DNA from: an uncultured Methanosarcinales archaeon | GTDB taxonomy: Archaea > Nanobdellota > Nanobdellia > Woesearchaeales > CAZYIM01 | Direction: 5' to 3' | NCBI GenBank assembly: GCA_964647565.1 | Contig: CAZYIM010000001.1 | Coordinates: 40,328-104,327 of the forward strand | Length of the DNA stretch: 64,000 bases | Part shown: in pieces, positions 2,542-60,617 of the stretch | How positions within the stretch are numbered: position 1 is the first letter of the stretch | Layout of the letters: each line of letters starts with the position of its first letter | Position numbers and translations under genes: made by a program | The notes under the pieces: generated by a model | Database searches by the model: none | Seen by the model: only the letters and a program-made list of their open reading frames with translations | Told to the model about the DNA's origin: nothing

Positions 2542-4626
2542 ATGAGCAGCGAACTAGACTACATCGGAATATTAAAAGCATTAAGAGACATACCTTTTGG
2601 TGTTGGAAAAAAACTGTTAATAGAATATCTTCAAGGAAAAGACAGCCATGAATCCATAGTTAGAAACAAGCTGGACAAACTAGACTCTTTTGGCAGCCTG
2701 GCATATGATACTGATGAACTTGAAAAGTTGATAAATAATCTGATCTTAAATAGTCTGATTAAGCAAGTGTCAATCAGGGGCAATCGTTTCTGGAAAGTGA
2801 TGGAACTCAGCCGAGAAGGGAGCAAGGAAATAGATAATCCTCAACTATATAAAAAAAAGATATCCTATAACATAAAAACAAAGACAACAAAAATCACTGA
2901 TCAGGATAAAAAGCGGTTCACAGCATTTGGCGTATTCCTTGATAAGTACAACGACGAACAAAAGAAAGCTATAATCTGCAACAACAATCACATCCTATGC
3001 ATTGCAGGCGCAGGATCCGGCAAGACAACAGTTTTGGCAAAGAAAGTTGAGTTCCTGATAAACTATCAATCAATCGATCCAAAAAAGATACTAGCGATCA
3101 CTTTCACAAGAAAAGCCAAACAGGAAATGCAGCGGCGTCTAGAAAACTTTAGTGACGTATCGATTGAGACTTTCAATTCATTCTGTGAAAAAGTCTTAAA
3201 GACGTACAATGATATGGTATATGATCGCGAGGTTCGCATGATAAGTTATCGGGATAAGATACAGATGACCCGCAAGGCTTTAACCAAGCTTGGCACAAGC
3301 ATGAGTTCTGCAATCAACCAGTATTTTTCAGTCGGCCAAAGAAGAGGCAAGACTCAGGAACAGTTGGCGAACATTTTCATGAATGACTGCTTTTTTATAC
3401 GTGATTATCTAAAATCAAAAGGGAAAAACTCAGCAGAATTTGATACGAGCGATCCTGCAGCACAACTGGTTTTTGGCGTAGGCAACTATATAGATGCACA
3501 CATGAAAAGAAACGGCCAGAGGGATTTCACTGACCAACTCATCGATACAATCAGGTTATTTAAAGAAAAGAAGGAATTAATATCAGATTATGATTATGTA
3601 TTAATCGACGAATACCAGGATATCAACCCTTCACAGATAAGCCTAATCGAATTAATAAATCCTGCAGCGTTATTCTGCGTCGGCGATCCGAGACAGTCCA
3701 TTTTTGGGTGGCGGGGATCAAGCATAAAATATATCCTTGATTTTGAGACCAAGTATCCAGGATCAGAGACAATAACATTAACCAAGAACTATCGTTCAAA
3801 CAAGCACATAGTTGAGATGATAAATAAATCAATTACCGAGATGGGCCTCGCAGATCTTGAATCGACCATAGATACAGAAAAAGACATGCACCTTATGACT
3901 TTTGATTCAGAAGCTGGCGAATTTGAATTTGTTACCCAGAAGATCATAGCTTCAACATTACCAAGAGAAGAAATATTTGTTCTTGCAAGAACCAACAGGC
4001 AGCTGGCAGAATTATCAGCCAAACTAAAGACTGTTGGCATAAAACATGTCCTAAAGAGTGATGAGATAAACAGGAGCATCGAGGCCAAAACAGGAGAAGT
4101 GACATTAGCTACGATCCATGCCATAAAAGGCCTTGAAGCAGAGATGGTCTTTGTAATCGGCTGCACATCTCTAAATTTTCCCTGCAGAGGAAGTGAGCAT
4201 CCAGTGATTGACATGGTAAAAGTGGATGAATATGATAAAGAGGAGGAAGAAAAAAGACTTTTTTATGTCGCTATGAGTCGGGCGAAAAATCATCTATTCC
4301 TGACGTATTCAGGAAAAAAGCACACTCATTTTATCACCAAAGACATGCTTGAGTTGATAAGAAAATCCAAGATTGATATTGAGCCTATGCAAAGTTCAAA
4401 AACAGCAGCCAGGGGAGATCTTAACGACAGGTTAAGGGCCTGGCGAAAGCGTGTTAGCTCAGACATGAATGTTGCAGCATTCATGATACTGCATGACAGG
4501 ACACTAATAGATCTTGCACAAAACCCGCCCACAACTAAACAAGAGCTGGAGAATATCCATGGAATGGGTCCTGCCAAGATTCTGAAGTACGGCGATGAAC
4601 TGATTGATGTGATAAATAATAAGTGA
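2542..4626 (+). CDS. UvrD/Rep-family SF1 helicase with N-terminal RQC-like winged helix and C-terminal HRDC domain
   Basis: GAGSGKT, DEYQD, VGDPRQSIFGWRG, LTKNYRS, TIHAIKGLE, EEKRLFYVAMSRAK. N-term PFGVGKKLLIEYLQG...FGSL is RQC-like. C-term RLRAWRKRVS...AFMILHDRTLIDLA...IHGMGPAKILKYG is HRDC. Confidence 0.88.
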   Translation: MSSELDYIGILKALRDIPFGVGKKLLIEYLQGKDSHESIVRNKLDKLDSFGSLAYDTDELEKLINNLILNSLIKQVSIRGNRFWKVMELSREGSKEIDNPQLYKKKISYNIKTKTTKITDQDKKRFTAFGVFLDKYNDEQKKAIICNNNHILCIAGAGSGKTTVLAKKVEFLINYQSIDPKKILAITFTRKAKQEMQRRLENFSDVSIETFNSFCEKVLKTYNDMVYDREVRMISYRDKIQMTRKALTKLGTSMSSAINQYFSVGQRRGKTQEQLANIFMNDCFFIRDYLKSKGKNSAEFDTSDPAAQLVFGVGNYIDAHMKRNGQRDFTDQLIDTIRLFKEKKELISDYDYVLIDEYQDINPSQISLIELINPAALFCVGDPRQSIFGWRGSSIKYILDFETKYPGSETITLTKNYRSNKHIVEMINKSITEMGLADLESTIDTEKDMHLMTFDSEAGEFEFVTQKIIASTLPREEIFVLARTNRQLAELSAKLKTVGIKHVLKSDEINRSIEAKTGEVTLATIHAIKGLEAEMVFVIGCTSLNFPCRGSEHPVIDMVKVDEYDKEEEEKRLFYVAMSRAKNHLFLTYSGKKHTHFITKDMLELIRKSKIDIEPMQSSKTAARGDLNDRLRAWRKRVSSDMNVAAFMILHDRTLIDLAQNPPTTKQELENIHGMGPAKILKYGDELIDVINNK

Positions 4627-14349: not shown

Positions 14350-14978
14350 AATATAAACTGATAAGTTTGGACATGGATGGAGTCATCTTTAAGAAAGACA
14401 ACTTCTGGATGAATCTGCATAAAGCCTTGGGCACCTATGAACAGGGCAAGGAGCTGACCAGGAAATACCTAAGAGAAGACTATGCTAAACTAGTTGAAGA
14501 GGTTGTCAATAAGCTTTGGAAGGGAAAAAGTGCTGATGCATATTTTGAGCTTGTGAAGACAAGTAAATATAATCCAGGTGTCAAAGAAGCTGTAGCAAGT
14601 ATGAAAAAAATGGGTTTTGAGCTCTGCATCATAACCTCAGGTCCCAGAGGATTGCTGGATAGGGCTAAAATAGAACTGGGTATTGAAGATGGGGTTTCAA
14701 ATGATCTGGTCATCAAGGATAATTTAATCACAGGAGAATTCATATGCCCGATTGCTGCAGACAACAAGCGTCCGATCCTGGCAGAGATCTGCCTGAAACA
14801 TGGAATCAGTGAAAAAGAGGTCATTGCCATCGGCAATGGATACAATGATGTCCCAAAGTTTGAGATGGCCGGCTTTTCCATTGCTTTTAATTCTCATTGC
14901 AAGGAGCTTAACAAGATAGCAGATGTTGTTGTAGAAGGCAATGATATGAGAGATGTTCTGGAAGTACTACCGAAATGA
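14346..14978 (+). CDS. HAD-superfamily phosphatase (phosphoserine phosphatase-like)
   Basis: LDMDGVIF, ITSG, K, AIGNGYNDV motifs. Confidence 0.8.
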   Translation: MKYKLISLDMDGVIFKKDNFWMNLHKALGTYEQGKELTRKYLREDYAKLVEEVVNKLWKGKSADAYFELVKTSKYNPGVKEAVASMKKMGFELCIITSGPRGLLDRAKIELGIEDGVSNDLVIKDNLITGEFICPIAADNKRPILAEICLKHGISEKEVIAIGNGYNDVPKFEMAGFSIAFNSHCKELNKIADVVVEGNDMRDVLEVLPK

Positions 14979-14979
14979 T

Positions 14980-15097
14980 AATTAAGTTACGTTCTACTTC
15001 GCTTTCTTCGGAAAAAAACTCAGAAAACTACGTCGCGCCATGCCACGAATGCCTCGCATTCAGTGGCTATCACGGCAGCGACGGCCGTAATTTAATT
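14980..15097. ncRNA. Candidate structured RNA/ssDNA element, copy 1 (homologous to 60044-60208)
   Basis: Closing stem AATTAAGTTACG/CGTAATTTAATT. Core CTACTTCGCT...AACTACGTCGCGCC...ACGGC-AGCGACGGC. Hairpin GCCAC-GAATGC-CTC-GCATTC-A-GTGGC. Confidence 0.6.
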
Positions 15098-15115
15098 AAT
15101 GCAATCTAAGAAATC

Positions 15116-60043: not shown

Positions 60044-60208
60044 GATGCAGAAAAATCCTACTCCGCTCAACTCGCTTTGCTCGTTGAACTACGCCGCACC
60101 AGTTGCGTTTACTTTGTAAACGACAATCCTAACGGCACTGAGAAATTACTTCGTAATTTCTGGTGTCTCGTTCGTATACTCGGAGACAGCAACGGCTTTT
60201 TCTGCATC
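60044..60208. ncRNA. Candidate structured RNA/ssDNA element, copy 2 (homologous to 14980-15097)
   Basis: Perfect 12-bp closing stem GATGCAGAAAAA/TTTTTCTGCATC. Core CTACTCCGCT...AACTACGCCGCACC...ACGGC...AGCAACGGC. Four internal hairpins. Confidence 0.65.
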
Positions 60209-60224
60209 AAGGAAGGTGATATAA

Positions 60225-60617
60225 ATGACAGTGGATCAATATGTAACCCAAGACTATCCAATTGAATGCAAAGGAAGGGATGCAAATATGCAGGAGGTGC
60301 TTGATGAGGCTTTAGAAGTTACAGTACATATACACAAGAGCCCTGGCAGCAGCATGATATCAAGCAATGTTGACTGTCCATATAATGTTGGCGGCCATGG
60401 AGACAGGTGCAAAGCCTCGCATCCAGATGTGCACAAGATAGGCCGAGGCGTTGGCTGCCCATACAGCTTTGACATCCCATATGCGCTCGAGTACTATCCT
60501 GAAGAAGAAATAAAAGAAAGAGAAACACTTAAGGCACTGCCATTTCCAGTTAAAACAGAGCTGATCAGATGCCTGCCCGATGCATGCCAGACTCGATATA
60601 GACTACTGACGGATTAG
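60225..60617 (+). CDS. Hypothetical Cys/His-containing protein
   Basis: AAGGTGAT RBS; CPY...GHGDRC..SH...GCPY. Confidence 0.6.
   Translation: MTVDQYVTQDYPIECKGRDANMQEVLDEALEVTVHIHKSPGSSMISSNVDCPYNVGGHGDRCKASHPDVHKIGRGVGCPYSFDIPYALEYYPEEEIKERETLKALPFPVKTELIRCLPDACQTRYRLLTD

Follow-up and report, generated by a model that had tools for sequence, protein, structure and literature searches.

The window, by which we mean the whole stretch of 64,000 nucleotides analysed here, carries two small folded elements, a long copy that ends close to the start of the gene at 60225 and a short copy that sits between convergent genes. Each is bounded by an inverted repeat whose arms form a closing stem (P1); the interior holds a junction strand (J1), a first hairpin (HP1), a second hairpin (HP2) and a long-range helix (P2) that spans HP2. 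Strands are those of the window, and the two copies are assigned to the minus strand, where selection appears to act on the fold:

60044-60208, minus strand: long copy of a probable folded MITE family (sequence and folds)
60044-60055, no strand: left terminal inverted repeat, 5' arm of P1, GATGCAGAAAAA
60056-60066: conserved junction strand J1, UCCUACUCCGC on the plus strand and GCGGAGUAGGA on the minus strand
60067-60087: hairpin HP1, 5 bp, loop TCGCTTTGCTC (family consensus loop UCGCUUUGCUC)
60092-60100: 5' strand of P2, CGCCGCACC, with its partners at 60189-60194 and 60134-60136 (read by hand)
60102-60127: hairpin HP2, 11 bp, with a 3-nt loop and a bulged A on the 3' side
60134-60136: 3' strand of P2, inner part, GGC
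60137-60188: two-hairpin insert at the bulged-A position of P2 (hairpins at 60141-60161 and 60164-60188)
60189-60194: 3' strand of P2, outer part, GCAACG
60197-60208, no strand: right terminal inverted repeat, 3' arm of P1, TTTTTCTGCATC
14979-15098, minus strand: short copy, near the minimal architecture of the probable family (sequence, fold and profile match)
14979-14991, no strand: left inverted repeat of the short copy, TAATTAAGTTACG
15031-15039: 5' strand of P2 in the short copy, CGTCGCGCC, with its partners at 15074-15076 and 15078-15083
15086-15098, no strand: right inverted repeat of the short copy, CGTAATTTAATTA

The architecture that a sequence-only reading had described for the long copy, with a perfect 12-bp inverted repeat at its ends, can be read directly from the letters: inside the repeat come TCCTACTCCGCT, HP1, AACTACGCCGCACC, HP2, ACGGC, two extra hairpins and AGCAACGGC. 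The TCC that follows the left repeat lengthens the P1 pairing in most members of the family presented below, and AGAAAAATCC, the inner part of the repeat, matches the family as well; the tip of the repeat resembles the AGCTGCAT-TCAAAATC type of another genome (G102), where a target duplication is seen. The copy indeed ends just before the ribosome-binding site of the gene at 60225, as had been noticed, i.e., directly before AAGGAAGGTGAT and 16 nt ahead of the ATG. Hardly any other member of the family carries the two-hairpin insert, and modules related to it (CACTGAGAAATTA..TAATTTCTGGTGTCTC..) are found at two other places in the same genome (contig C3 at ~30280 and contig C29 at ~16066); the insert is thus probably nested in the long copy, and may be a small repeat of its own.

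The short copy repeats the motif order of the long one, as had been claimed, with the two extra hairpins missing; the span first given for it, 14980-15097, has to be extended to 14979-15098 by its 13-bp stem. The stop codon of the upstream gene (TGA, 14976-14978) abuts its left repeat, and its insertion may have reshaped the 3' end of that gene. An internal TCG..CTC motif had been reported at three places: at two of them it is the HP1 loop of the family, the third (60172-60181) being part of the unrelated insert. Against dinucleotide shuffles, the folding energies of the long and short copies give z = -5.4 and z = -5.3, respectively. No recognisable target duplication lies beside either copy, and their tips (AGATGCAG... 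and TAATTAAG...) are not of the GGC type found in some relatives; both copies are old, their target duplication being gone and their tips having diverged from that type. Both are nevertheless full-length members, still fully folded on the minus strand.

An exact motif pattern had no match in 60 relatives, and in the window's own assembly (2.68 Mb, 38% G+C) exact motifs retrieved only the two window copies and one odd copy on contig C61. As the 3' half of the raw copies was misaligned by MAFFT, we built the search model from trimmed natural rows and synthetic rows. This covariance model, R1, comprises the two trimmed natural copies, the C61 copy in re-ordered form and five synthetic rows with random compensatory stems; one has to keep in mind that it is a search device only, and that its synthetic rows carry no evidential weight. 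The covariance search of DPANN genomes that the sequence-only reading had suggested did bring out a large covarying family: of the 401 genomes searched in the same order, with nine candidates scored in each, 27 gave a match to R1 at E <= 1 and about 20 of these did so below 1e-5, many with several copies, the best foreign match standing at 8e-19. A nhmmer profile built from foreign copies, with the long copy left out, matched the long copy at E = 2e-10; the best match to the natural-copy profile was the short copy, at E = 3e-16, which is itself a row of that profile.

The elements are 105-165 bp long and non-coding, and their number varies widely from host to host. According to a profile of natural foreign copies, there are at least 15 in the window's own genome; BLAST finds no fewer than 36 in a genome of 0.9 Mb, and 9 and 1 in two congeneric species; two genomes, G029 and G093, contain near-identical bursts of copies. 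No copy of the family was found in viral contigs. In public records, the exact core occurs in MAGs labelled Woesearchaeota or Nanoarchaeota, two out of five carrying the label “Methanosarcinales”, which is probably a mislabel. Five loci of our collection (L101, L102, L104, L107 and L108; CAYFOH01 and CAZJZJ01) come from records titled “uncultured Methanosarcinales archaeon”, which match genomes placed in the DPANN order of the window.

Comparison with Rfam, proposed from the start, gave no match on either strand: none for the whole window at the gathering score of Rfam 15, and, with both strands of the window copies and of eight foreign copies searched, nothing relevant at E <= 10 or E <= 1. 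ARAGORN predicted no tRNA gene in the window and 22 loci. A permuted tRNA or tRNA-like gene, hinted at by CCA after GCRCCA, was rejected, there being no room for D and T arms and ARAGORN being silent; 5S rRNA, RNase P RNA, C/D and H/ACA RNAs and K-turns were discarded as well, their box or core motifs being missing on inspection and Rfam being silent. A bulge-helix-bulge splicing motif was also sought in P1 by hand, and is not present in the stem of G029.

According to the family alignment, the element folds into a three-way junction made of P1, HP1 and the long P2-HP2 arm. Read on the plus strand, P1 with UCC/GGA is followed by UACUUC, HP1 (closed by GCU/AGC), UA, CGUCNN-GCC, a small internal loop, HP2 and GGC-A-NNGACG, the 3' strand of P2 running directly back into P1; the junction strands are therefore UACUUC and UA on the plus strand, or GAAGUA and UA on the minus strand. 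P2 pairs CGYCNN-GCC with GGC-A-NNGACG, both in the MFE fold of the short copy and in the family alignment; this is the register that replaces the GCCG/CGGC pairing previously taken to be conserved. In this fold, P1 is stacked on the long P2-HP2 arm and HP1 stands out as a side arm.

We measured the pairing on 60 related copies (56 distinct sequences), in an alignment that was fitted to P1, HP1 and HP2 of the model and favours those helices: 88% of the cells hold standard pairs, whereas shuffles reach 60% and slid partners 33-42%; both sides change in 32 of the 37 pairs; the covariation score is 0.59, that of shuffles 0.14 and that of slid partners about 0.1; and covariation is seen at all 7 pairs of HP1 and all 11 pairs of HP2. 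P2 is not part of the search model, and yet it covaries. One of its variable pairs is UA (23) or GC (18), also GU, another is GC (24), CG (10) or UA (7), and a third pair changes from CG to UA three times. The selection on structure that the two window copies alone had suggested is thus upheld by the pairing and by the changes on both sides.

The different parts of the element do not vary to the same extent. Within genomes, recent bursts being left out, identity is 49% for P1, 55% for HP2, 76% for J1 and 78-88% for P2, and these values are almost equal to those between genomes; within and between genomes taken together, J1 stands at 74-76%, the stems at 35-57% and HP2 at 40-57%. HP2 is the arm most variable in sequence, yet it is always paired. 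Variable helices with constant junctions and P2 inside one and the same genome are the pattern of a structured RNA rather than that of transposon relics decaying uniformly.

The sequence-only reading had placed the fold on the plus strand; the mismatches point to the complement. At paired columns read on the plus strand, A.C outnumbers G.U by 80 cells to 20, or by 54 to 18 when column-by-genome combinations are counted (binomial p = 3e-5), with A.C in excess at 18 columns and G.U at 6. An A.C on the plus strand is a G.U on the minus strand, which indicates that the fold is selected on the minus strand; since the orientation of the copies in the genomes is random and Infernal rewards G.U, this bias comes neither from mutation pressure nor from the search. 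This is the case, for example, for P2 of the long copy, examined by hand: on the plus strand, CGCCGC/GCAACG and ACC/GGC contain three A.C mismatches, whereas on the minus strand CGUUGC/GCGGCG and GCC/GGU are fully paired, with three G.U. The MFE, too, is lower for the minus strand, in all 49 colinear copies and in 7 of the 8 permuted ones (see below). We did not retain folding energy as a test of the strand, for the minus strands of shuffles are lower too and the z-scores are similar on both strands; the energy difference being partly compositional, the strand is called from the A.C/G.U counts.

P1 is at the same time the terminal inverted repeat of the element, 12-13 bp long in the window copies and 15-25 bp in their relatives. 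In G029 there are six 142-bp copies, nearly identical, that open with GGCTCTGTCC and close with GGACAGAGC; all six are flanked by a 9-bp direct repeat that is different for each, such as GTAAGAATA, GTTTTGATA, TATAGCATT or ATTAGCCCT. We compared the sequences that abut the inverted repeat on either side in 57 copies of 20 genomes: they agree at 9/9 positions in 10 copies and at 8/9 in 10 more, where a control joining left and right flanks from different copies predicts 0.24 and 2.5, respectively. Target duplications accompany several tip types and were seen in at least eight genomes; moreover, in one genus a copy lies just upstream of the promoter of a GTPase gene, and the orthologous spacer is empty in two other species. 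The non-coding RNA that had been envisaged for the window elements, if taken as a fixed gene, thus gives way to a dispersed mobile element with inverted repeats and 9-bp duplications.

Some copies have other surroundings. At one locus of G102 (L064, C11:4525-4640), the flanks carry a 17-nt direct repeat, GTTTATTCAAACACAAT, and not a 9-bp one. Two copies of the window's own genome (C40:2701-2835 and C8:38041-38175) and one of G055 (L019) have the same core inside a different, longer inverted repeat, GGCTAWTATGAAACCCT..., showing that the fold is combined with several kinds of transposon ends.

A likely partner is found in two genomes. In G029, the GGCTCTGT tips and 9-bp duplications recur on an 888-bp element and on other small elements; the former codes for a DDE transposase, which scores above the cut-off of PF01609 and matches the IS5-family model NF033579 at E = 4e-34 with 118 bits, below the cut-off of 140. 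The window's own genome has an 890-bp element (C3:36514-37403) with tips GGTTGTGTAGAAAA and duplication GTTTTTTAT, whose transposase is 43% identical to that of G029, together with family copies tipped GGCTTTGTAGAAAA. In these two genomes, the tips GGCTCTGT / GGCTTTGT / GGTTGTGT, followed by AGAAAA, and the 9-bp duplication are common to the MITE and the IS of ~890 bp; GGC termini with a 9-bp duplication are seen in G029 and G000, on the IS as well as on the MITEs, a combination that we take to characterise the IS903 group within the IS5 family as defined in ISfinder. Other copies have tips AGCTCCAT, AGCTGCAT or ACACTGTC. The IS6 family, our first guess from GGCTCTGTTGCAAA, was dropped, the transposase being of the IS5 type and the duplication being 9 bp and not 8. 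G029 also hosts an unrelated 134-bp MITE family (L042:1017-1150, L045:1989-2122 and L047:2004-2137) with a GC-rich interior and 9-bp target duplications; its tips, GGCTCTGTTGCAAATC, are common to the 888-bp IS and the folded family.

An IS5-family DDE transposase would presumably move the element in trans. No PF01609 (IS4/IS5-type) transposase was detected in six copy-rich hosts, which include the genome where no fewer than 36 copies occur and an assembly with a completeness rating of 100%; the link to IS5 is thus drawn from two genomes and from the 9-bp duplications elsewhere. A single-stranded-DNA element akin to REP/REPIN or IS200/IS605, moved by an HUH (Y1) transposase, had also been put forward, and a strand-specific fold is typical of such elements. 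We hold this to be very improbable: Y1_Tnp (PF01797) is missing from eight host genomes, whereas control genomes score, and such systems have neither target duplications nor terminal inverted repeats, both of which are present here.

The position of the long copy, 16 nt before a start codon and next to a ribosome-binding site, together with a closing stem and conserved junctions as in aptamers, could speak for a riboswitch or another cis-regulatory leader of the gene at 60225. The genomic setting of the family leaves this hardly any credit. The genes downstream of 15 copies are functionally unrelated (among them are thioredoxin, cytidylyltransferase, GTPase, sugar kinase, deacetylase, HIT, desaturase and Nudix genes), and copies between co-directional genes show no orientation bias, with 17 in sense and 15 of the 32 in antisense; 18 further copies lie between divergent genes and 3 between convergent ones, the latter being the setting of the short window copy. 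A typical site is 4-40 nt past a stop codon and about 50 nt ahead of the next start, the long window copy with its 16 nt being an exception, and in most copies the TATA-like box of the next gene lies between element and gene. Inverted repeats and 9-bp target duplications are, finally, the mark of a MITE and not of a riboswitch. As a separate observation, a BRE/TATA-like box (AAAnnTTTATAnA) directly follows the 9-bp duplication at L011, L014, L016, L017, L035 and other right flanks, so that these insertions border the promoter of the next gene on its upstream side.

The family also exists in a circularly permuted form (type B), the colinear one being type A. The window's own genome has at least nine permuted copies, on contigs C61, C11, C19, C24, C6 and C4 and, for three of them, on C3; a strict pattern of the permuted order retrieved three further genomes from three genera, with 0 matches for a reversed-pattern control, so that the form is known from four genomes in all. 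The order is then P2/J4 strand, a short capped P1 hairpin, J1, HP1 and J2/P2 strand, and HP2 is opened into a closing stem of 15-20 bp that ends in a T-run. In some of these copies the capped P1 resembles two abutted transposon tips (CCAGAGC-n-GCTCTGT), in others its sequence is unrelated with the pairing kept; pairing is hence maintained where P1 is not a transposon end. We saw no target duplication beside permuted copies. One may conjecture that an excised circle, re-opened in the HP2 loop, would yield the permuted order. In one permuted copy of another genome (L094 in G243, C27 ~4131-4175), the closing stem carries ACAAAGCC ... GGCTTTGT, which are outward-facing transposon-tip sequences, and the left flank resembles a right-end repeat (TTTTTTCTA..CAAAGCC).

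The permuted copies bring to mind free-standing small RNA genes, in which P1 would be a processing or terminator stem and of which a few copies would have been captured by transposon ends. Those of the window's own genome have AT-rich, TATA-like sequence upstream, and their closing stem runs straight into a T-run; the family is conserved in the manner of a structured RNA, and six hosts lack a PF01609 transposase. Nevertheless, we judge such genes to be quite improbable, given target duplications that were seen with several tip types and in no fewer than eight genomes, a copy number that goes from 1 to at least 36 within one genus, both orientations, typically 4-40 nt after stop codons, and the near-identical bursts in G029 and G093.

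The same permuted copies bear on the opposite view, that of an ordinary palindromic MITE whose fold has no function, the pairing being kept by processes acting on DNA or by the needs of the transposase: stems would be restored by quasi-palindrome correction through template switching, and the junction would be a protein-binding site on double-stranded DNA. Hallmarks of a MITE are there, and MITEs of G029 with other interiors use the same tips, which means that the interior is not needed for end recognition. We still find this view unlikely. The 3:1 excess of A.C is strand-specific, which is unexpected for a feature of double-stranded DNA or for a symmetric correction; P2, a long-range helix spanning HP2, covaries; junctions are conserved among old copies in genomes without a detectable transposase; and the pairing of P1 persists in permuted copies, in which P1 does not form a transposon end.

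We thus favour with good confidence the following identity: the window elements are non-autonomous MITEs of Woesearchaeota-type DPANN archaea, whose interior fold is kept on the minus strand. The single-stranded form that folds would most likely be an RNA read from the element. As the orientation to neighbouring genes is random, such an RNA would serve the persistence or spread of the element itself and not the host genes next to it. It is possible, although we remain rather doubtful, that the unit under selection is itself a structured RNA of a new class, which would be read off the minus strand and carried within IS5-type ends in type A, and in type B in permuted form without transposon ends around it. 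Such an RNA could recruit or titrate a transposase or a host factor in the propagation or control of the element, or process itself, and the element would then be an RNA-bearing DNA transposon of archaea.

MITEs are usually viewed as inert deletion derivatives with drifting interiors. The interior of the folded family seems to behave like a functional structured RNA, judging from its covariation, its constant junctions, its strand preference and its survival in genomes where no transposase was detected; it has also come through a circular permutation. If the fold does work as RNA, these tiny host-dependent archaea would harbour a mobile RNA module at a density of up to one per 25 kb. For annotation, the family accounts for recurring GC-rich “structured intergenic elements” in Woesearchaeota genomes, and a model to find them is supplied.

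Several known systems share features with the family. Hammerhead ribozymes of types I-III and twister also combine a three-way junction, conserved joining strands and variable helices with natural circular permutation and an association with repetitive elements; the joining strands are, however, GAAGUA, UA and none here, as opposed to the hammerhead core CUGANGA/GAAA, and the family has no match to the ribozyme classes or any other family of Rfam on either strand at E <= 10. In REP/REPIN-RAYT systems and the ends of IS200/IS605, the fold also matters on one strand only; the folded family differs in that eight of its hosts have no HUH transposase and in having inverted repeats with 9-bp duplications. 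Correia/NEMIS in Neisseria, ERIC/IRU, BOX, RUP and bcr1 in the Bacillus cereus group are repeats of 100-200 bp scattered between genes, which fold as RNA if co-transcribed, some of them with target duplications and inverted-repeat ends. These are bacterial, whereas the folded family is archaeal and without orientation bias to host genes; we know of no report for them of multi-helix covariation across family-level divergence or of circular permutation.

A further likeness is to MITEs derived from the IS903 group (IS5), which are also small and devoid of an ORF, with inverted repeats starting GGCTYTGT and a 9-bp duplication, and for which an IS of ~890 bp with the same tips and a DDE transposase exists in two hosts. 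The folded family departs from them by its deeply conserved, strand-specific three-way junction, by its several tip variants (non-GGC in the window copies), by six hosts without a detectable transposase and by a transposase that scores below the NCBIfam IS5 cut-off. A census of prokaryotic MITEs counted 105 MITEs per Mb in one Woesearchaea genome (PMC11602168); the host group is the same, and the parts of that census available to us do not describe the folded family, its fold or the permutation. The family is undescribed in Rfam, and a MITE with IS5/IS903-like ends is in itself a known kind of element; what is unusual is that a deeply conserved fold is kept by selection on one strand, that it persists in genomes lacking a transposase and that it occurs naturally in circular permutation.
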